Below are positions 20,083 through 55,277 of a stretch of 64,000 nt of DNA, in pieces. The notes under the pieces were generated by a model. The model made no database searches and was not told the origin of the DNA. It saw nothing but the letters and a program-made list of their open reading frames with translations. Location: NCBI GenBank assembly GCA_031409275.1, contig JANNXA010000055.1, positions 144,163 to 208,162 on the forward strand, given 5' to 3'. This stretch comes from Planctomycetota bacterium (GTDB lineage Bacteria; Planctomycetota; B15-G4; SIAN01). The position numbers were made by a program, and so were the translations under genes. Numbering within the stretch: the stretch's first letter is position 1; the number at the start of each line of letters is the position of its first letter.

Positions 20083-20247
20083 GCGACGCGCTCGATCGCC
20101 GTTTGCGCCCCACGGCGGGCGTCGCTCGTTTGATCGGCGAGGCGCTGTTCGACCTGCTGCTCCTGGTGCCGAGAGTGCTGCTGGCGATGCTGTTCTGCAC
20201 GAGCCGCCAACGCTCGATTGCTGACCTCGTGCGCGCGAAAGGACCTC

Positions 20248-21411
20248 ATGCCCCGTAAGACGCGCATCCTCCACGACAACGACGAGTACCTCTTCGTCGA
20301 AGCCCCCGGTGACCCGCTCGGCCCGGCGCTGCAGGTCTTCGCGCGCACCGACAATGAACGCGCCGTTCCTGCCGGCCGCGCCCCCACGCACCAGACCGAG
20401 CACGGCCTGTGGATCCAGATCGCTCGCTTCGACGGCCTGGAACTCGGGATCGCCCCGGATAGCCCGGACGGGCTCGGCGAGCGCGTCAAGACGATGCTGC
20501 CGCGCTACGTCGAAGTGCGCGCCACGCGAATGGCGCAGGCCAAGCACCCGATGTGGTGGATCGTCAGCGAAGGACACGCGCTGCACGGGCTCCATCCCGC
20601 GCAGCCGGCCGGCGCACTGTTCAAGCTTTGGAGCGATGAAGCGCGCGCGCGCGCCGTGGTGGCGGAGCTCGGTGTCGAGGGCGCCGTGCAGACCACCGGA
20701 CACCTGCGCGAGTTCCTCGAACTGCGCGCCGAGGAGGGTTACGCGGGCGCGCTCCTCGATGACGAGGAGCTGATCTTCTTCTGCCTCGACGAGCAGGCGA
20801 AGCTGCAGTTCCTGCGCCTCGCGCCACGCGCCGGCGATGACGAGGAGGCGGCCGGTGTGGCGACCCATCTCCTCGGCGAAAACGGCCGTTTCGCGCTCTA
20901 CGAGGGCGACGAGAAGCTCGAACCGCTGTCCGACCCGGATGGCTGGGATCGCCTGCTGGCTCGCCTCTACGGCGAGCTGCCGTTCTACGGCTACGTGCCG
21001 GGCTGGCGCTGCTTCGCCCTGCGACTCGACGGCGCGTGGGTGACCCGCCTCGATGCGGAGAGCGAGTTCAAGCAACCGCTCGTCGCGCTGTTCCACGATC
21101 CGGCGACCGCGGACGACTACCGCTCGCGTCACGGGCTCGCGCGCGCCACGTTGGAGCGGGTGACGGACATCGTCGCGCTGGTCCGCCACGCGCAGGAACA
21201 GGGACAGCTCGTTTCACTGCAACCGGAAGACCATCGGGTGCGCGGTGGACCGCTCTGGCTCGACCGCGACGGCAAGCTGCTGCTGCTCGGCTACTGCGGA
21301 ATCTGGTCGTCGCGCGATGGAGTCGCCTTCGAGCGCGTCGCCGAAGAGGAGCTTCCCACCACGAGCCCCGACGACGCCGAAGTCGACGATCAGTCGTCCG
21401 GCATCACGTAG
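20248..21411 (+). CDS. Hypothetical protein (387 aa)
   Basis: It is a long ORF with acidic, balanced composition and starts MPRKTRILHDNDEYLFVEAPGD. I recognised no domain. Confidence 0.55.
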   Translation: MPRKTRILHDNDEYLFVEAPGDPLGPALQVFARTDNERAVPAGRAPTHQTEHGLWIQIARFDGLELGIAPDSPDGLGERVKTMLPRYVEVRATRMAQAKHPMWWIVSEGHALHGLHPAQPAGALFKLWSDEARARAVVAELGVEGAVQTTGHLREFLELRAEEGYAGALLDDEELIFFCLDEQAKLQFLRLAPRAGDDEEAAGVATHLLGENGRFALYEGDEKLEPLSDPDGWDRLLARLYGELPFYGYVPGWRCFALRLDGAWVTRLDAESEFKQPLVALFHDPATADDYRSRHGLARATLERVTDIVALVRHAQEQGQLVSLQPEDHRVRGGPLWLDRDGKLLLLGYCGIWSSRDGVAFERVAEEELPTTSPDDAEVDDQSSGIT

Positions 21412-22148: not shown

Positions 22149-22359
22149 GGGAGATCTTTCGGTTCGCGAGCGGGGCCGGCGTGAATCGAAGCGGGAAACA
22201 TAGCGCGGGCGGCGTCGAAGCCTGCCGCCGCACCGTTACACTTCCCGTCTCGCATCAGAGGACCGGGCGGCGGCTCAAGACGCCGGGGCCTTCCCTCCGA
22301 TCGACGACTCGGAATGGCGGCACGCCACCGACGCCCGGCCCAAGAGGAGCACTGCTGCT

Positions 22360-23220
22360 TTGCCGCAACCGCTGAGTCGACGCCTCGCCGGGCTGTTCCG
22401 CAGCAAGGCCGACCTCACGAGCGTGAAGGCGCTCGAGAAGGCCGGCGTGCGCAGCGTGAACGTGCTCGACCTGCGCCGTCTCGAGCAGATCGTCGGTGAC
22501 GCGATGGAGAGCGCGCTGCACGAGGCGCTGGTCGCGGGCGGCTCCGCGGAGCACGCAGCGACCGGAGCGCAGCTCGAATTCCTGCGCCGCCTCGGCCTCG
22601 AAGGACGTCTCGCCGAGCGCACCGGAGAACTTGACGCCGAACGCGCCGAGCTCGCCGGCAGCCTCGAGAAACTGAACACCGTCCTTGACCAGAGCAAGGC
22701 GGAACTCGCGCAGCACAAGGCGGAACAGCGCCGCGGCGCGCTCGACGATCTGCGCGCGCGGCTCGACTTGTTGCTGGATGAAACGTTCGCGCGCTTCGTG
22801 GCGCTGCAGGAGGAGGGGCTCGCGCTGACGTCGAGTCGACCGCCGCTGCGCGCCGCGCTCCTCGCACTCCTCGAAGGCGCGCTCCTCGCGGGCGGTGGCA
22901 CCGTCGCTGCCGTAGAGGACAGTGCACACGTCGATCGGCTCGAACGGCGCGTGAAGAAGCTGCACGTGCAGCTCCTCGAAACGCAGGAGCTGCTGGCGCG
23001 CACGCGCGAAGAGCAGGAGGCGCAAGTGGCGGCCACGGCGCGCGCGGCGCGCGACGGCCGCACCGGAGTCGCGGCCATCACCGCTCCATCGAGTGACCAC
23101 TCCGACCGCAAAGCGCTGATGCGCGAGATTTTCGCTCACAACCTCGAACTGCGTCGCACGCTCGGTGACCCCGACGCCGCGACGCGCCCCGTCCAACGCA
23201 CCGATCCGGAGACACGATGA
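22360..23220 (+). CDS. Coiled-coil protein whose stop overlaps the MamK-like gene start
   Basis: It shows long heptad-like Glu/Leu/Ala/Arg stretches (ELAGSLEKLNTVLDQSKAELAQHKAEQRRGALDDLRARLDLLLDE). Its stop overlaps the downstream ATG (ATGA). Confidence 0.6.
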   Translation: MPQPLSRRLAGLFRSKADLTSVKALEKAGVRSVNVLDLRRLEQIVGDAMESALHEALVAGGSAEHAATGAQLEFLRRLGLEGRLAERTGELDAERAELAGSLEKLNTVLDQSKAELAQHKAEQRRGALDDLRARLDLLLDETFARFVALQEEGLALTSSRPPLRAALLALLEGALLAGGGTVAAVEDSAHVDRLERRVKKLHVQLLETQELLARTREEQEAQVAATARAARDGRTGVAAITAPSSDHSDRKALMREIFAHNLELRRTLGDPDAATRPVQRTDPETR

Positions 23221-24296
23221 ATGCTTCCACCGGAACCCCGTCCCGTTCGCGCCCTGCCACGCCGAAGGGAACCCTCTACCTCGGCATGGATCTCGGGACC
23301 TCTCGCACCTCCATCGCCACCAGCACTGGCGTGCGGGAGACGGTGGCAAGCTACGTCGGCTACCCCAAGGACGTGGTGTCGCGAAAGGCATTGAAGAAGG
23401 ACGTGCTCTTCGGCGACGACGCGCTGGCCAATCGCCTCGCGCTCAACCTCTATCGCCCGCTGGCCGGCGGCGTGATCCAGCACAGCGACGGCGCGGCCGA
23501 TAGCGCCGAGGCGAAGGCCTACCTCAAGGCGGCTCAGGACCTGATCCGCCACGCGGTCGGGTTGGCGCGACCGGAATCCGACGAACTCGTCTACGCCGTG
23601 ATCGGCTGCCCGGCGCAGTGCTCGTTGCGCAACAAGGCGGCGATCCTCGAGGCGGCGCGACCCGTCGTCGACTCGGTGATGATCGTCTCGGAGCCCTTCA
23701 GCGTCGCCTACGGCATCGACCAGCTCACCGACTGCCTCGTCATCGACATCGGCGCCGGCACCACCGACCTCTGCCGCATGCGCGGCGCGATGCCGACCGC
23801 AGAGGACCAGCTCACCAACGTCTTCGCCGGCGACCACGTCGACAAGAAGCTCGAGGAGCTCCTGAAGAAGAAGTGCGTCGGCGCGGCCTTCACGATCCAC
23901 GCGATCAAGGACCTGAAGGAGCGCTTCTCCACGGTCAGCGACATCCACGAGCCGGTCTACTTCGAGGTGCCGGTGAGCGGCAAGCCGACCCGCTTCGAGG
24001 TCGGTGCCGAGCTGCGCGAAGCGTGCCGCTCGATCGTTCCGCCGATGGTCGACGCCATCCACCAGCTCATCGCCAGCTACGATCCCGACTTCCAGAGCCG
24101 CCTGAAGAACCACGTGCTGCTCGGCGGTGGCGGCAGTCAGATGGGTGGCTTGCGGGAGATCCTCGAATCGGAGATGAAGTCGCGCCTCGGCGAGGGGCGC
24201 GTGACACGCGTCGAAGAGCCGACCTACGGCGGCGCCAATGGCGCCCTCAAGATCGCGCATGACATGCCGGCGGAGTTCTGGGAGAAACTCTCCTGA
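23217..24296 (+). CDS. MamK-family actin-like ATPase
   Basis: Actin-fold motifs are phosphate-1 LYLGMDLGTSRTSIA, phosphate-2 LVIDIGAGTTDLC, and adenosine VLLGGGGSQMGGL. YPKDVVSRKAL, VLFGDDALANRLAL, SEPFSVAYG and GALKIAHDMPAEFWEKL all resemble MamK. Confidence 0.75.
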   Translation: MNASTGTPSRSRPATPKGTLYLGMDLGTSRTSIATSTGVRETVASYVGYPKDVVSRKALKKDVLFGDDALANRLALNLYRPLAGGVIQHSDGAADSAEAKAYLKAAQDLIRHAVGLARPESDELVYAVIGCPAQCSLRNKAAILEAARPVVDSVMIVSEPFSVAYGIDQLTDCLVIDIGAGTTDLCRMRGAMPTAEDQLTNVFAGDHVDKKLEELLKKKCVGAAFTIHAIKDLKERFSTVSDIHEPVYFEVPVSGKPTRFEVGAELREACRSIVPPMVDAIHQLIASYDPDFQSRLKNHVLLGGGGSQMGGLREILESEMKSRLGEGRVTRVEEPTYGGANGALKIAHDMPAEFWEKLS

Positions 24297-24439
24297 GCTG
24301 CAGCCGACCCGGCCACCACTGATCGCGAGGACATGTCGCCATTCCGCCGCTGCTGAAGGCCCTGCGCCCCCATCAATGGACGAAGAACCTCGCGGTCTTC
24401 GTCGGCATCCTCTTCGCCCGGAAGCTCGGCGATCCGGCG

Positions 24440-25246
24440 GTGCTGCTTCCCGTGGCGCTGCTGTTCTGCGCCTTCTGTCTCGCGGCGAGCTGCATCTACC
24501 TGATCAACGACATCGCCGACCGCGAGGAAGACGCCAAGCACCCGGTCAAGCGCATGCGGCCGATCGCGTCGGGCGCGCTGTCCGTCGGAAGTGCGCGCGT
24601 CGCCGCGGTGGTGGTTGCCGGGCTCGCGCTGGCGCTGGTGTGGTTCCTGCCGACGGACGTCCGACTCACGCCGTGGAAGCTGCGCCCCGGCCCATTGGTG
24701 CTGTCGGCCTACCTCGGATTGAACCTCGCCTACACGTCGCTGCTGAAGCGCGTCGCCATCGCCGACGTCACCTGCGTTGCGCTCGGCTTCCTGATCCGCG
24801 TCGTCAGCGGGCCGAAGGTGGCGGGCCTCGAAGTCTCGTCGTGGCTGATCCTGTGCACCTTCTTCGGTGCGCTCTTCCTCGCGCTGGCGAAGCGCCGCGG
24901 CGAACTGCTCGTCACGCAGACCAGCGGCGGCGGTCGCTCGGTGCTGGAGCAATACTCGGCGCAGGCGCTCGACACGCTGGTGGCGATGTCCGGGACGGCG
25001 ACCGTGATCTGCTACTCGATCTACACCGTCTCGGCCGAGACGATCGCGAAGTTCCACACCAGCGACCTGCTCTACACCATCCCGTTCGTCTTCTACGGGC
25101 TTGGTCGCTACCTGCTGCTGCTCTACCGCCGCCAACGGGGCGAAGACCCGGCGGCGGTGCTCTTCACGGATCGCGGCATGTTGGTCGCGATCGTCGGCTG
25201 GCTCGCCACGTCGGCCGTCGTCTTGAGCCTGCCGCACACGCCCTGA
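24440..25246 (+). CDS. UbiA-family prenyltransferase (decaprenyl-phosphate phosphoribosyltransferase-like)
   Basis: NDIADREEDAKHPVKRMRPIASG is the UbiA/DPPR-synthase motif. Homology continues in frame upstream to 24323 (IPPLLKALRPHQWTKNLAVFVGILFA), so the true N-terminus is longer than this GTG start (see finding). Confidence 0.75.
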   Translation: MLLPVALLFCAFCLAASCIYLINDIADREEDAKHPVKRMRPIASGALSVGSARVAAVVVAGLALALVWFLPTDVRLTPWKLRPGPLVLSAYLGLNLAYTSLLKRVAIADVTCVALGFLIRVVSGPKVAGLEVSSWLILCTFFGALFLALAKRRGELLVTQTSGGGRSVLEQYSAQALDTLVAMSGTATVICYSIYTVSAETIAKFHTSDLLYTIPFVFYGLGRYLLLLYRRQRGEDPAAVLFTDRGMLVAIVGWLATSAVVLSLPHTP

Positions 25247-48954: not shown

Positions 48955-49154
48955 GGTGCGTTCCCGGGGGGGCGGCGCCAGCGCGGCGCGGTCGTGCAGG
49001 CCGGACGGAGGGCACTCCCCCGGCGGAAAGGCGGAGCATTTAAGGTGCGGTCGCGCCGCCGATCAACCGTCGCGCGGCTCTCGCGGCTTCTCCGCGGGTG
49101 TCGGCCGACTTATCCTATCCGCCCTTCCCATCACGACTTCCAACCGACGTCACG

Positions 49155-50312
49155 ATGTCTACCGCGACCTCTTCCACTGCGCTCGCGCCGCTCCAGTCGA
49201 TCCTCGACCGGGTCGCGGCAGGCGTTCGCCTCGATCGCGACGACGGCCTCGCGCTGCTCGCTTGCGAGGACCTCTCGCTGCTCGGCGAACTCGCCACCTT
49301 GGTGCGCGACCGCAAGCGCCCCGAGCGGGTCGTCAGCTACATCGTCGATCGCAACATCAACCCGACCAACATCTGTGTCGCGCGCTGCTCGTTCTGCGCC
49401 TTCGACCGGCTGCCGGGCGACCCTGAGGGATACGTCCTCAGCCACGAGCAGATCTTCGCCAAGGTCGACGAGTTGCTCGCCGTGCCCGGCGTCGACGAGC
49501 GCCTGCTCGCCCGCGGCGGCGTGCAGGTGCTGCTCCAGGGCGGCCACCACCCGAAACTCGGGATCGAGTGGTACGAGGAGTTGTTCCGGGCGCTGCGCGC
49601 GCGCTACCCGAAGCTGCACGTGCACGGCCTCTCGCCCTCCGAGATCGTGCACGTCGCGAAGCTTTCGCACCTCGACGTCGCGACGGTCGTGCGCCGCCTC
49701 GCGGCCGCCGGCCTCGACAGCATTCCCGGCGGCGGCGGCGAGATCCTCGTCGATCGGGTCCGTCGCGCCATCGCGCCGGGCAAGGCGATGACCGACGAGT
49801 GGCTCGGCGTGATGCGCGAGGCGCATGCCCAGGGCATGAAGACGACGGCCACGATGATGTACGGCCACGTCGAAACGCACGCGGAGCGCATCGAGCACCT
49901 GTTGCGCCTGCGCGAACTGCAGCATGAATCGCTGGCGCGGCCCGCCGCGCCGGGTCGGCGCCAAGGGGCATTCACCGCCTTCATCTGCTGGCCGTTCCAG
50001 CCCGGCGGCAGCGAGCTCGAACTGCCGCGCAGCGGCGCCAACGAATTCCTGCGGATGAACGCCGTCGCCCGGCTGATGCTCGACAACTTCCCGCACCAGC
50101 AGACCTCGTTCGTCACGCAGGGCGACAAGCTCGGCCAGCTCGCGCTGTTCTTCGGCTGCGACGATTTCGGCGGCACGATGCTCGAAGAGAACGTCGTCTC
50201 GGCCGCCGGGACGCAGTGCCTCATCACCATCCAGCAGATCGAGCACTGCATCCGCGCCGCCGGCTTCGAACCGATCCGCCGCAACATGTACTACGAGAGG
50301 GTCGACGCATGA
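49155..50312 (+). CDS. mqnC: Radical-SAM enzyme of the futalosine pathway (MqnC/MqnE family). I tentatively call it cyclic dehypoxanthine futalosine synthase.
   Basis: NPTNICVARCSFCAF is a CxxxCxxC radical-SAM cluster of the MqnC/MqnE/CofH type. Whether this gene or its neighbour is MqnC or MqnE cannot be settled by eye. Confidence 0.65.
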   Translation: MSTATSSTALAPLQSILDRVAAGVRLDRDDGLALLACEDLSLLGELATLVRDRKRPERVVSYIVDRNINPTNICVARCSFCAFDRLPGDPEGYVLSHEQIFAKVDELLAVPGVDERLLARGGVQVLLQGGHHPKLGIEWYEELFRALRARYPKLHVHGLSPSEIVHVAKLSHLDVATVVRRLAAAGLDSIPGGGGEILVDRVRRAIAPGKAMTDEWLGVMREAHAQGMKTTATMMYGHVETHAERIEHLLRLRELQHESLARPAAPGRRQGAFTAFICWPFQPGGSELELPRSGANEFLRMNAVARLMLDNFPHQQTSFVTQGDKLGQLALFFGCDDFGGTMLEENVVSAAGTQCLITIQQIEHCIRAAGFEPIRRNMYYERVDA

Positions 50313-51481
50313 CGCCCGGCGCTCCCTCAGTCGCACCGGAGCTGGCGTCGACCACGCACGAGCTGCGCCTCGACGGTCGCGCGGCGCTGCTGCCCGGTGG
50401 CCACGACGCGCGGCTGCGCGCGATCGAGGAGTGCGTGCGCGGCGGTGGACGCCTGACGTTCGACGACGGCTTGTTCCTCATGCGGACGCCGGCGCTGCAC
50501 CGCGTCGGCCGGCTCGCCAATTGGGTGCGCGAGCAGAAGCACGGCGATCGCGCCTACTTCGTCGTCAACCGCCACCTGAACCCGACCAACTTCTGCGTCT
50601 ACGACTGCAAGTTCTGCGCGTTCTATCGGCGCGCCAACGACCCCAACGGCTACCGCATGGCGCTCGACGACGTGCGCCGCATGGTGCGCGACGAGTTCGA
50701 GCGCGAGCTCACCGAGGTCCACATCGTCGGCGGCATCGATCCGAAGCTGCCCTACTCGTACTTCATCGATCTGCTGCGCGTCATCAAGGAGGAGCGGCCC
50801 GACCTCCACCTGAAGGCGTGGACCATGATCGAGATCGAGTGGTTCGCGCGGATCTCGAAGAAGAGCATCGAAGAGGTCATCGACGACCTGCTGGCGGTGG
50901 GGCTTGGCTCCTGCCCCGGTGGCGGCGTCGAGGTGCTCTCCGATCGCGTCCACGCCGAGATCTTTCCCGACAAGCTCTCGCCCACGCAATGGCTCGACAC
51001 CGCGCGCCGGGTCCAGGAGCACGGCGTCCGCATGAACGCGACAATGCTCTATGGGCACATCGAGACCGACGAAGAGCTCGTCTCCCACATGGTGCAGGTG
51101 CGCGAGCTGCAGGACGCGACGCACGGCTTCATGACCTTCATCCCGCTGGCGTTCCACCCGGCGCACACCGAGCTTGCCCACCTGCCGGGCCCGACCGGCC
51201 TGCTCGACCTGCGCACGATCGCCGTGTCGCGCCTGATGCTCGACAACGTCGAGCACATCAAGACCTACTGGATCATGCAGGGCATCGGCGTGGCGCAGGT
51301 CGCGCTGCGTTACGGCGCCGACGACATCGATGGCACCGTCGTCGAGGAGAAGATCACCCACGACGCCGGCGCCACCACCCCATTCGGAGTGACCCGCACC
51401 GAGTTGATCCGCTTGATCCGCGAAGCCGGTCGCACGCCCTTCCAACGCGACACGACCTACTCCCGCGCGGCACCCGTGTGA
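50309..51481 (+). CDS. mqnE: Radical-SAM enzyme of the futalosine pathway (MqnC/MqnE family). I tentatively call it aminofutalosine synthase because it sits next to mqnA.
   Basis: NPTNFCVYDCKFCAF is present. The start overlaps the previous gene's stop (ATGA). It is a paralog of the previous gene. Confidence 0.65.
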   Translation: MTPGAPSVAPELASTTHELRLDGRAALLPGGHDARLRAIEECVRGGGRLTFDDGLFLMRTPALHRVGRLANWVREQKHGDRAYFVVNRHLNPTNFCVYDCKFCAFYRRANDPNGYRMALDDVRRMVRDEFERELTEVHIVGGIDPKLPYSYFIDLLRVIKEERPDLHLKAWTMIEIEWFARISKKSIEEVIDDLLAVGLGSCPGGGVEVLSDRVHAEIFPDKLSPTQWLDTARRVQEHGVRMNATMLYGHIETDEELVSHMVQVRELQDATHGFMTFIPLAFHPAHTELAHLPGPTGLLDLRTIAVSRLMLDNVEHIKTYWIMQGIGVAQVALRYGADDIDGTVVEEKITHDAGATTPFGVTRTELIRLIREAGRTPFQRDTTYSRAAPV

Positions 51482-52414: not shown

Positions 52415-54115
52415 ATGACCGACAAGGTCGCCGAGCAGCACGGCCTTTTTCAATCGAACGACGCGACGCCCGCCGGCAAGCGCAAGTCGGCGCGCACCGA
52501 GGCGCCCGCTCCGGCTGCGGCGCCGCTCGAGCGCAGTGATGGTGGCGGGGCCGGCGGCGACACCGTCGCGCACCGCCTCGCGACCAAGCAGCGCGAGATC
52601 TCCGTCTCGGAGTTCTTCACCAAGAACCGCCACCTGCTCGGCTTCGACAACCCGCGGAAGGCGCTCCTCACGGCCATCAAGGAGGCGGTCGACAACTCGC
52701 TCGACGCCTGCGAGGAAGCGGGGATCCTGCCCGACGTGAAGATCGAGATCCTGCCGACCGCGCGCGAGGATCGCTTCCGCGTCGTGGTCGAGGACAACGG
52801 CCCGGGCATCGTGAAGCAGCAGCTCCCCCACGTCTTCGCGCGGCTCCTCTACGGCTCGAAGTTCCACGTGCTGAAGCAGCAGCGCGGACAGCAGGGCATC
52901 GGCATCAGCGCCGCCGCGATGTACGGCCAGCTCACGACGGGCAAGCCGCTGTCGGTCATCTCGCGCATCGGCAAGTCGCACCCGGCGAACTACGTCGAGC
53001 TCAAGATCGACACCGCGCGCAACAAGCCGGAAGTGCTGCGCGAGATGGAGACGGACTGGGACAAGGAGCACGGCACGCGCATCGAGCTCGAGCTCGAAGC
53101 GAAGGTGCAGAAGGGCAAGCAGTCGGTCGACGAGTACCTGCTGCAGACGGCCATCGCGAACCCCCACGTGCGCCTCGAATACAAGGACTGGGAAGGGGTC
53201 GTCGTCGTGCACGAGCGCGCGACGCAGACGCTGCCGCCGCAGCCCAAGCAGATCCAGCCGCATCCCTACGGCGTCGAGGTCGGGATGCTCGGCGGAATGA
53301 TGAAAACGACCGAGACGAAGAAGCTCGCCGCCTTCCTGAAGAGCGACTTCTCGCGCGTCAGCGCGCGCGTCGCCGAGGAGATCTGCGAGAAGGCGAGGGT
53401 CTCGCCCGATGCGCGACTCACCGGACTCGAGCCCGAGCAGATCGAGCGGGTCCATCAGGCGATGAGCGAGGTGAAGATCCTCGCGCCCGCCACCGACTGC
53501 ATCGTGCCGATCGGCGATGCCGGGCTGATCGCCGGCATGAAGAAGGTGATCAAGGCCGACCTCTACCTCGCCGAGACGCGCACGCCGAAGATCTACCGCG
53601 GCAACCCGTTCGTCGTCGAGGTGGGCGTCGCCTATGGCGGCGAGCTGCCGGCCGAGGAACCGGTGCGCGTGGTGCGCTTCGCCAATCGCGTCCCGCTGCT
53701 CTACCAACAGGGTGCGTGCGTCTCGACCAAGGCGATCATCTCGACCGACTGGCGCGGCTACATGCTGCAGCAGCCCAAGGAGTCGCTGCCGGTCGCGCCG
53801 ATGGTGATCGTCGTCCACCTCGCGTCGGCCTGGGTGCCGTTCACTTCGGAAGCGAAGGAGGCGGTCGCGCACTACCCCGAGATCCTGAAGGAGATGCGCC
53901 TCTCCTTGATGGAGATGGGCCGCAAGATCGCGACCCACATCCGCAAGACGCGCCACGCCGCCGACGAGGCGAAGAAGCGCGACTACATCGACATGTTCCT
54001 CCCGACCGTCGTCGACGCCCTGAACGAGATCCTCACGCTCGATCAGCCGACCCTCGACAAGACCTCCGGCAACCTGCGCGACATCCTCGAAGCGTCGCGC
54101 AAGAAGATGACGTAG
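52415..54115 (+). CDS. top6B: DNA topoisomerase VI subunit B (GHKL ATPase)
   Basis: Bergerat-fold motifs are the N-box EAVDNSLDA, G1 DNGPGI, and G2 GQQGIGIS. The EFFTKNRHLLGFDNPRKALLTAIKE signature is present. It is 566 aa with an AGGAGG SD. Confidence 0.85.
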   Translation: MTDKVAEQHGLFQSNDATPAGKRKSARTEAPAPAAAPLERSDGGGAGGDTVAHRLATKQREISVSEFFTKNRHLLGFDNPRKALLTAIKEAVDNSLDACEEAGILPDVKIEILPTAREDRFRVVVEDNGPGIVKQQLPHVFARLLYGSKFHVLKQQRGQQGIGISAAAMYGQLTTGKPLSVISRIGKSHPANYVELKIDTARNKPEVLREMETDWDKEHGTRIELELEAKVQKGKQSVDEYLLQTAIANPHVRLEYKDWEGVVVVHERATQTLPPQPKQIQPHPYGVEVGMLGGMMKTTETKKLAAFLKSDFSRVSARVAEEICEKARVSPDARLTGLEPEQIERVHQAMSEVKILAPATDCIVPIGDAGLIAGMKKVIKADLYLAETRTPKIYRGNPFVVEVGVAYGGELPAEEPVRVVRFANRVPLLYQQGACVSTKAIISTDWRGYMLQQPKESLPVAPMVIVVHLASAWVPFTSEAKEAVAHYPEILKEMRLSLMEMGRKIATHIRKTRHAADEAKKRDYIDMFLPTVVDALNEILTLDQPTLDKTSGNLRDILEASRKKMT

Positions 54116-54125
54116 GAGCCGCCCG

Positions 54126-55277
54126 ATGGCGAAGGACGACAAGAAGAGCCGCAAGCACGCGAGCGCCAACCCGGAGCTCGACAAGGTCACCGTCAAGTGC
54201 ATCGATCGCGCGGCGACGCGCGTGCTCGACTCGATCACGAAGAAGAAGCAGCCGGAACTCAAGTTCCCGGTCCGCTCGCTCTCCAACGTCGACTACGACG
54301 TGAAGAAGGGCTTCTTCGAGCTCGGCGAGAACCTCTCGACGCGCACGCTCACCGTCAATTCGGTGAAGACCTTTGCGCAGACGCTGAAGCTGATGTCGCT
54401 CAGCAAGCAGATGGTGCTGGAGAACAACTCCGCCACCAAGCGAGAGGCGTACTACGTCAGCAAGAACTGGAAGGACGCTCGTTTCGACGAGCAGACCGAG
54501 TCGGACACCGTGATGGACGACGTCGAGGCGATGTTCAGCCTCGATGGCGTCACCCGCGAGCAGCTGCGCTTCGTCCCGGACGAGCACGGCGGTGCGGTGG
54601 CGGGCGAGCTGATCGTCATCGACCGCGACCCCAACTCGCACGAGCCGATCGAGATCGACTGCACCAAGTTCGGCACCGGCGCCTACACGATCCCCTCGTC
54701 CGTCGAGCACCTGAAGTTCCGCACCAACGCCAAGTTCGTGCTCGCCATCGAGACGGGCGGCATGTTCCAGCGCCTGCAGAGCAACGGCTACCCGAAGGAT
54801 GCCCACTGCATCATCGTCTCGATGGCCGGCGTGCCGACGCGCTCGACGCGCCGCTTCCTGCGCCGCCTCACCGATGACCTCGACCTCCCCGTCTACGCCT
54901 TCGTCGACTGCGACCCCTACGGCATCGCCAACATCTACCGCACCTTGAAGGTCGGCTCCGGCAACGCCGCGCACATCAACCAGTTCTTCTGCGTTCCGCG
55001 CGCGCGCTTCCTCGGCGTCACGCCGCAGGACATCCTCGACTTCAAGCTGCAGGACGCCACCCACCCGCTGCAGGAGGTCGACGAGAAGCGCGCCAAGGAT
55101 GCGCTGAAGAACGACCCCTTCTTCAAGAAGAACAAGGCGTGGGTGCGCGCCTTCGAGCAGATGCTCTCGATGAAGGTCCGCGCCGAGCAGCAGGCGCTGA
55201 CCAAGTGGGGACTCAATTACGTCATCGACGAGTACCTGCCGCGCAAGCTGAAGAGCCCGGGCACGTTCCTGCCGTAG
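54126..55277 (+). CDS. top6A: DNA topoisomerase VI subunit A (Spo11/Top6A, winged-helix plus Toprim)
   Basis: REAYYVS is the region around the catalytic Tyr. The Toprim acidic motif is VDCDPYGIANIY. It is 383 aa and lies directly downstream of top6B. Confidence 0.85.
   Translation: MAKDDKKSRKHASANPELDKVTVKCIDRAATRVLDSITKKKQPELKFPVRSLSNVDYDVKKGFFELGENLSTRTLTVNSVKTFAQTLKLMSLSKQMVLENNSATKREAYYVSKNWKDARFDEQTESDTVMDDVEAMFSLDGVTREQLRFVPDEHGGAVAGELIVIDRDPNSHEPIEIDCTKFGTGAYTIPSSVEHLKFRTNAKFVLAIETGGMFQRLQSNGYPKDAHCIIVSMAGVPTRSTRRFLRRLTDDLDLPVYAFVDCDPYGIANIYRTLKVGSGNAAHINQFFCVPRARFLGVTPQDILDFKLQDATHPLQEVDEKRAKDALKNDPFFKKNKAWVRAFEQMLSMKVRAEQQALTKWGLNYVIDEYLPRKLKSPGTFLP

Follow-up and report, generated by a model that had tools for sequence, protein, structure and literature searches.

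Bacterial actins act through dedicated accessory proteins, as MamJ does for MamK, ParR for ParM and RodZ for MreB. MamJ is acidic and repetitive, and ParR contacts the ParM filament via a short C-terminal element. Which proteins, then, serve a MamK-like actin in bacteria that are not magnetotactic? We approach this question through a locus in a 64-kb stretch of DNA from a Planctomycetota bacterium (contig JANNXA010000055.1, positions 144,163 to 208,162; this whole stretch is called the window here). The locus holds the gene of a 359-aa MamK-like actin, the gene of a 286-aa helical protein directly upstream of it (the partner) and, divergently oriented beyond that, the gene of a P-loop ATPase of the bacterial tyrosine kinase (BY-kinase) type. 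We consider it somewhat better than an even bet that the three genes, in Planctomycetota that are not magnetotactic, make up a chromosomal cytoskeletal module whose partner protein docks on the actin filament or regulates it.

Saltatorellin, the MamK-like actin of Saltatorellus ferox, was described by Wiegand et al. (2019, bioRxiv 10.1101/817700). As an mCherry fusion it formed filaments in E. coli and in Magnetospirillum deleted for mamK, and a role in shape-shifting, shape control or FtsZ-independent division was proposed for it (10.1101/817700). The 'Saltatorellota' of that preprint (10.1101/817700) correspond to the GTDB classes UBA1135, UBA8108 and GCA-002687715 of the Planctomycetota. 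By description the window protein matches saltatorellin, both being MamK-like actins of non-magnetotactic Planctomycetota, and it shares the trait of branching near MamK, distinct from MreB, since both hidden Markov model (HMM) and PDB rankings place MamK before BeeR and BeeR before MreB. The preprint (10.1101/817700) describes no partner gene or associated ATPase, and the published primer sequence of S. ferox Poly30 found no match in the loci fetched for this study. BeeR, the three-stranded tubular actin of the Verrucomicrobiota (PMC11929497), is likewise a MamK-related actin of non-magnetotactic bacteria of the Planctomycetes-Verrucomicrobia-Chlamydiae superphylum, and is the second-best match of the window actin by HMM and by fold; however, its hallmark is a disordered N-terminal domain of ~35 residues, whereas the extension preceding the first strand in the model of the window actin has ~17. 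In Desulfovibrio magneticus RS-1, according to Russell et al. (2025, PMC12748827), the coiled-coil proteins Mad20, 23, 25 and 26 work with the actin-like proteins MamK and Mad28. They differ from the window partner in being magnetosome-specific.

How does the locus compare with the two classical actin-adaptor pairs? As in the MamK-MamJ arrangement of Magnetospirillum, an actin-fold ATPase is encoded directly after a non-enzymatic accessory gene, but here without a magnetosome context. The window partner also differs from MamJ, being near-neutral (isoelectric point 6.2, with 45 Asp and Glu against 42 Lys and Arg), free of meaningful tandem repeats and all-helical, with no Pfam or NCBIfam match; an earlier note on this DNA, made from the letters alone, had rightly called it neither acidic nor repetitive. 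The two-gene unit of actin and adaptor resembles that of ParM-ParR, the type II plasmid partition system, although the order is reversed, with the adaptor gene of the window upstream of the actin. Unlike ParR, the partner has no hit to a ribbon-helix-helix DNA-binding domain, and no DNA-binding domain of any kind or centromere-like repeats were found by Pfam, NCBIfam and a repeat scan. Unlike ParM, the actin belongs to a chromosomal, housekeeping locus and is far closer to MamK. Overall, an actin with an adaptor is a known kind of system, and this partner is neither MamJ-like nor ParR-like.

The actin was compared with known families by profile, sequence and fold. Against the NCBIfam MamK subfamily model NF040964 it scored 399.6 bits over a full-length match (20-358), 0.4 bits short of the cut-off of 400. 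It failed the thresholds of the BeeR model NF053558 (197 bits, cut-off 530) and of the MreB/Mbl models TIGR00904 (38 bits, cut-off 365.75) and PRK13927 (53 bits, cut-off 293). Among the sequences of solved structures, phmmer ranked MamK first (E 4e-73), followed by BeeR (1e-41) and MreB (5e-11), and BLASTP aligned 342 aa with MamK of strain AMB-1 at 36% identity (62% positives). The AlphaFold2 model (predicted template-modelling score 0.74, with subdomain IB poorly resolved) had MamK 5ljv as its best Foldseek match (E 2e-30, TM 0.79/0.86), with BeeR, MreB and eukaryotic actins next. No ParM chain was present among the phmmer structure hits or the 50 best fold matches listed, and those 50 included no Hsp70, FtsA or sugar kinase; the assignment made in the earlier note, to a MamK-like family and not to these three, is borne out by HMMs, structure sequences and Foldseek. 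The phosphate-1 (DLGTS) and phosphate-2 (DIGAGTTD) motifs, the SEPF glutamate and the GGGS adenosine motif all align with MamK, and the catalytic residues, the Glu of SEPF and the Asp of DIGAGTTD, are conserved in that alignment. Judged by these motifs, the 359-aa protein is a MamK-family-like actin that should be catalytically competent.

The actin is nonetheless of a known kind. Its homologues number more than 3,858 proteins at E below 1e-20, some of its relatives already bear the source label 'MamK family actin-like protein [Planctomycetota]', and it is a member, of saltatorellin type, of the Planctomycetota MamK-like clade; it is not undescribed. Nor is it a MamK in the functional sense, that is, the actin of magnetosome chains, because the magnetosome context is absent: none of the 38 gene products of the window scanned against Pfam is encoded by a magnetosome (mam or mad) gene, just as the earlier note had said, and the relatives of the actin sit in housekeeping contexts.

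At least 563 GTDB species genomes encode a relative of the actin, the best 80 of them all Planctomycetota metagenome-assembled genomes (MAGs). Is the partner kept beside it? Close relatives of the partner (48-63% identity) lie in fully syntenic neighbourhoods, which proves little alone; therefore, 80 loci were taken via the actin. These are the best of the at least 563 and come entirely from MAGs, with 58-88% actin identity. When a partner profile was searched against the 5,811 stop-to-stop open reading frames (ORFs) of the fetched loci and the window, it matched an ORF adjoining the actin gene in 79 of the 80 loci and no other ORF among the 5,811. There is one partner ORF per locus, except for tandem pairs in two (L051 and L072), and in 78 of the 79 loci it is co-directional with the actin gene and directly upstream of it. 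All-against-all clustering of the ORFs gave the same picture, partner and actin being the only families common to all loci, with the next cluster reaching 16. The outer neighbours are unrelated between loci and include a sulfatase, EPSP synthase, an oxidoreductase, an M14 peptidase, a glycosidase and urocanase. Distance matrices of the partner C-terminal domain and the actin are correlated (Pearson 0.62), a value reached by 0 of 2000 Mantel permutations. In MAGs with two modules, each partner is nearer its orthologue in another MAG than its co-resident paralogue, which implies that whole modules were duplicated. Conservation of the two genes together goes well past what chance or mere synteny would give, and a lack of the pair in related genomes, which the earlier note said would refute its reading, is contradicted by both the profile search and the clustering.

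A few loci depart from the common layout. The partner homologue of L046 (4255-5793, minus strand) lies upstream of the actin gene on the opposite strand. On the 3.4-kb contig L076, no partner was detected in the ~2 kb upstream of the actin gene. The tandem window-type paralogues of L051 (3561-5787) and L072 (3613-5821) precede the actin gene with no ATPase nearby.

The partner itself matches no Pfam, NCBIfam or PADLOC model and carries no product name in the annotation. Its AlphaFold2 model (mean predicted local distance difference test score 78.8) is all-helical, with helices at 81-152, 156-178, 181-231 and 246-267, of which the first (72 residues) and third (51 residues) are predicted at high confidence; no membrane segment is predicted. 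Foldseek against the PDB returned long-helix matches only, none with E below 1. The earlier note had called the protein a coiled coil. The long helices and a significant periodicity of ~3.68 residues in helix 81-152 (2 of 1000 shuffles) agree with this, but the heptad periodicity of 3.5 is not significant, and on the model the defensible label would be 'long amphipathic helices, coiled-coil-like'.

The defining feature of the partner is not its coiled-coil character but a specific C-terminal domain of ~80 residues (the C-domain), with the signature LERRIaKL..L..TE.eL.R...K..D.GvaSIYR.VQGL...KK.LM..IF.aNleL. This is the only region of the partner common to all lineages, and in the hits listed it stands at the extreme C-terminus. 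An 81-position profile of it, searched against 1.84 billion proteins, found 915 cluster representatives at E <=1e-3 (752 at E <=1e-10), and no Pfam or NCBIfam model covers it. These searches indicate that the C-domain is a previously undescribed protein family. In the window partner its central loop is degenerate (GVAAITAPSS) and the flanking helices are kept; at 22990-23100 of the window (partner residues ~211-247) an Ala-rich segment replaces the near-invariant GvaSIYR.VQGL, as it also does in the closest relatives, P0002 and P0003. The searchable literature holds no report of the partner, of its domain, or of a link of GGDEF or BY-kinase domains to MamK-like actins, and both partner and domain appear new. 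The suggestion of the earlier note that this could be an undescribed filament or positioning module is upheld in part: the actin belongs to the clade already described as saltatorellin, and the partner is unreported in that literature.

Ahead of the C-domain, partners fall into classes. Long helices of the window type occur in 26 loci, the window included, and a GGDEF-like domain in 45; in a third class, a BY-kinase-like P-loop domain is fused to the C-domain (L020 and at least 10 census clusters). The 107 census proteins of at least 250 aa were classed as 67 GGDEF-type, 16 window-type, 8 ATPase fusions and 16 other. On the actin tree the loci sort by partner class without exception; those of the window type sit side by side, and take the basal position if MamK serves as the root. 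The GGDEF-type relatives are labelled 'diguanylate cyclase', but the motif GG(D/E)EF is present in 0 of 82 locus-derived partners and 0 of 148 census proteins. In an alignment of this class to DosC, WLPGDRL takes the place of RYGGDEF, and RxxD lies exactly five residues upstream, at the position of the inhibitory site (I-site); at the active-site position these partners have PGDRL, MGNRV or ADDRL, and their RxxD reads RDSD or RESD. Examples lie in the range L018-L086, such as L022:4816-5874 and L033:4824-5864, with proteins P0130-P0168. PopA and PelD are degenerate GGDEF receptors of cyclic di-GMP (c-di-GMP), and the sister-lineage partners resemble them in having lost GG(D/E)EF and kept RxxD, and c-di-GMP binding is putative there; the window partner has no GGDEF domain. 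The BY-kinase-like fusions have lost the Walker A lysine (AGNT or SGTS for GEGKS) and the A' motif. Examples are L020:4724-5824 and the census proteins P0205, P0209, P0222, P0246, P0257, P0265, P0293 and P0308.

The N-terminal region of the partner that carries LSRRLAGLFRSKADLTSVKALEKAGVRSVNVLD is restricted to the window-type class, and a separate ATPase gene is present as well in 19 of the 25 related loci of that class. Residues 5-37 of the partner are therefore a candidate contact site for that ATPase. The ATPase exceeds the NCBIfam cut-off for TIGR01007 (124.8 bits, cut-off 108), scores 162.6 bits with TIGR03018, and has as its nearest solved relative the CapA/CapB chimera (E 1e-31), with MinD, McdA and ParA at ~1e-7. 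Walker A (GEGKS), A' (VIDADLR) and B (FDTPP) are intact and kept in 19 orthologues, as is the N-terminal motif EP.S..AEQYR..RTN; these are the motifs of the CapA/CapB BY-kinases. Unlike those, the window ATPase has no tyrosine cluster, its tail holding one Tyr (VRSYVMPDD) and those of orthologues 0-2, and it is tied to an actin module; neither the window scan nor the surroundings of orthologues yielded a transmembrane activator domain or gene, or polysaccharide genes. Its gene is the immediate upstream neighbour of the partner gene in ~20 divergent loci, which have different genes further out; GGDEF-class loci lack it. Its orientation is divergent in most window-class loci and co-directional in L067 and L085. 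The phmmer E values of orthologues are 1e-129 or better within the window's lineage and ~1e-57 to 1e-71 across lineages. In one locus (L052:3382-4935) the gene of a Wzy_C (O-antigen ligase-like) membrane protein replaces the ATPase upstream of a window-type partner.

The earlier note had taken this ATPase for an orphan BY-kinase, a label that does not survive the comparison, as it is a conserved third gene in the window's class and is fused to the C-domain elsewhere. By sequence it is a true BY-kinase-type domain, and in loci of the window's partner class it would seem to complete the module as a third gene. The lack of polysaccharide and activator genes, the few tyrosines in the tail and the fusions to the C-domain all argue that it is a module component and not a bystander.

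How might such a module work? The saltatorellin-clade actin would polymerise, and the 286-aa partner would serve it as a dedicated accessory or adaptor protein. Both would come from one transcript and would, in this lineage, probably be coupled in translation via ATGA. The C-terminal helix-loop-helix may dock on the actin monomer or filament, as we propose by analogy with the C-terminal element through which ParR binds ParM. The variable N-terminus would supply regulation or anchoring. In the window, the divergent BY-kinase-type ATPase may act on the class-specific N-terminal region of the adaptor, by ATP-dependent binding or tyrosine phosphorylation, and would in this way determine where and when filaments assemble. 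In sister lineages, the fusion of the C-domain to a degenerate BY-kinase-like or GGDEF (RxxD) domain suggests that the control input was swapped, possibly for c-di-GMP. Taken jointly, that the C-domain docks on actin, that the N-terminus takes regulatory input and that the input in the window is the neighbouring ATPase is a proposition drawn from sequence comparison, which we judge slightly more probable than its negation. It builds on the observed gene identities, intact catalytic motifs, operon structure, phylum-wide conservation and co-divergence of the pair, partner architectures and fusions. In the cell, the module of these FtsZ-less bacteria could serve to control shape, division or internal positioning.

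A broader proposal, which we offer tentatively and hold to be possible rather than probable, is that the C-domain is a clade-wide actin-binding module that plugs interchangeable signalling inputs into a MamK-like cytoskeleton. The inputs would be an active BY-kinase-type ATPase in the window class, a fused pseudo-kinase, and a degenerate GGDEF domain with I-site. If true, bacterial actin filaments would be directly governed by tyrosine-kinase-type or c-di-GMP signalling, and the module would be a candidate for what drives Saltatorellus-like Planctomycetota to change shape or to divide without FtsZ. No accessory factor of the Planctomycetota MamK-like actin is named in the searchable literature. 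The locus supplies candidates: a partner near-universal among the genomes examined, a sharply conserved 80-residue domain testable for filament binding, and alternative regulatory heads. It also brings to light a C-domain family of ~900 clusters that annotation currently misses.

Several points weigh against the three-gene module as we have set it out. What speaks for docking of the C-domain on actin is genomic association only, and the co-divergence of the two proteins is also expected from shared vertical descent, the comparison including no independent control gene. In the window lineage the C-domain is without its most conserved loop and may therefore act differently or more weakly. The kinase activity of the ATPase is uncertain, as it lacks a tyrosine cluster and the searches turned up no activator domain. 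The loci examined are only the best 80 of at least 563, all MAGs. The support from saltatorellin is a preprint with heterologous expression only (10.1101/817700).

Could the partner instead be a cargo adaptor like ParR or MamJ, and the module a machine that positions or segregates what the filament is linked to, whether DNA, an organelle, a vesicle or a site on the membrane? ParM-ParR and MamK-MamJ are regularly encoded as operons of actin plus adaptor. The partner has its conserved element at the very C-terminus, which brings to mind the ParM-binding C-terminal helix of ParR, and an adjoining ATPase of the ParA/MinD superfamily is typical of positioning systems. However, this ATPase is far closer to BY-kinases (1e-31) than to ParA, MinD and McdA (~1e-7), and the variable N-termini are pseudo-enzyme domains of a signalling type, not cargo-binding modules. 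Given also a chromosomal locus amid housekeeping genes, no DNA-binding domain or centromere-like repeats found, and a partner model without a membrane segment, we regard a cargo adaptor as unlikely. It is more doubtful still that adjacency reflects co-regulation only, the partner being an independent signalling or structural protein that makes no contact with actin. The association of partner and actin is, after all, a genomic one, and the degenerate loop in the window lineage shows that the C-domain can drift. Yet 79 of 80 loci retain the pair although their outer neighbours have been replaced completely, whole modules are duplicated, their members co-diverge, partner class follows actin phylogeny, and the two genes overlap (ATGA) or lie ~65 nt apart.

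The remaining alternatives concern the ATPase and the actin. If the ATPase were an ordinary exopolysaccharide BY-kinase that lies beside the pair by chance, the real module would have two genes. This would fit its score above the cut-off of TIGR01007, the model of the polysaccharide tyrosine autokinase domain, its absence from GGDEF-class loci, and the Wzy_C-like gene found upstream in its stead in L052. We think it very improbable, since its flanks, which differ further out, contain no gene for Wza, Wzz or a glycosyltransferase at any of the loci examined, since it has no tyrosine cluster, since the adjacency persists in lineages where its phmmer E value is ~1e-57 to 1e-71, and since at least 10 clusters have a degenerate homologue of its domain in fusion with the C-domain. 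A relic or silent magnetosome gene cluster, with the actin a true MamK, is scarcely credible. The MamK subfamily HMM score does fall within 0.4 bits of the cut-off, and one report (PMC7602337) places magnetosome clusters in some Planctomycetota MAGs; but there is no mam or mad gene in the 64 kb, identity to MamK is only 36%, and the same gene stands in housekeeping contexts in at least 563 species genomes.

The gene calls and junctions of the locus were examined from the sequence. The ORFs described in the earlier note lie where it placed them (Table 1), and the actin ATG (23217-23219) does overlap the TGA of the 286-aa gene (23218-23220), forming ATGA. A GGAG at 23208-23211, inside the 3' end of the partner gene, stands 5 nt ahead of the actin ATG, and an AGGAG at 22345-22349 stands 10 nt ahead of the partner TTG. 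The TTG start is supported by the motif RLAGLFRSKxDLTS, which is invariant among relatives of the partner. Codon-position GC is typical of genes (GC3 0.83 for the partner and 0.91 for the actin, in a genome of ~70% GC) and supports both ORFs as real. Independent assemblies of the same organism have identical 252-, 286- and 359-aa gene calls, and an exact database look-up of the window actin product returned no record. Consensus scans found no terminator-like site between the partner and actin genes and no sigma-70 match in the ATPase/partner intergenic region. The overlap of -4 (ATGA) occurs also in L007-L009 and L037 and, apart from L037, is confined to the window's lineage; elsewhere the gap between partner and actin genes is short (median ~65 nt).

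Table 1. Features of the actin locus, numbered from the first letter of the window
Feature	Position	Strand	Basis
BY-kinase-type (CapB-like) P-loop ATPase gene, 252 aa	21390..22148	-	Family HMMs, solved-structure match, motifs
ATPase/partner divergent intergenic region, 211 bp, presumed site of both promoters	22149..22359		Sequence
Partner gene, 286 aa, TTG start, all-helical product	22360..23220	+	ORF call, AlphaFold2
Window-class N-terminal motif of partner, residues 5-37, LSRRLAGLFRSKADLTSVKALEKAGVRSVNVLD	22372..22470	+	Invariant columns in alignment
Partner C-terminal domain, residues 186-270, helix-loop-helix	22915..23169	+	Common to all lineages
Translational-coupling junction: GGAG 23208-23211, 5-nt spacer, ATGA 23217-23220	23208..23220	+	Sequence
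MamK-like ('saltatorellin'-type) actin-fold ATPase, 359 aa	23217..24296	+	HMM, structure matches, AlphaFold2

On its far side, the ATPase gene meets a gene of 397 aa (20218-21411), given as 387 aa in the earlier note, which has no family hit; the two genes are convergent and overlap tail-to-tail by 22 nt. The 397-aa gene was considered as a further module member and rejected, being found only in the close syntenic lineage and not conserved with the module beyond it. Similarly placed plus-strand ORFs in L014 and L078 proved to be Arg-rich wrong-frame artefacts without similarity to the 397-aa protein, the real neighbours there being unrelated enzymes. In relatives of the 397-aa gene (L001:5615-7004) a small ORF of 61-70 aa precedes it. 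None of the four genes of the locus matched a PADLOC defence model.

Downstream of the actin lies a UbiA-family gene, decaprenyl-phosphate phosphoribosyltransferase-like by its score with NF008977 (230.9 bits, cut-off 234). Its N-terminal motif LLKALRPHQWTKN is encoded at 24323-24440, upstream of the first canonical start (GTG at 24440), and only ATT or CTG is in frame after the stop ending at 24322; the position of the motif points to a non-canonical start, a local frameshift or a sequencing error.

The 38 products scanned belong to housekeeping genes, among them those of a GlmU-like transferase, TatC, CoaE, MoxR/DUF58, RecG, LipB, a TonB system, DPP-IV, a molybdopterin oxidoreductase, radical S-adenosylmethionine (SAM) enzymes of CofH/MqnC-like type, topoisomerase VI and ClpP. 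Topoisomerase VI is typical of archaea and plants and uncommon in bacteria; its B and A genes are adjacent at 52415-55277 (Topo-VIb_trans with HATPase, and TP6A_N with Toprim). Two adjacent radical-SAM genes of CofH/MqnC type, at 49098-51481, suggest the futalosine route to menaquinone.

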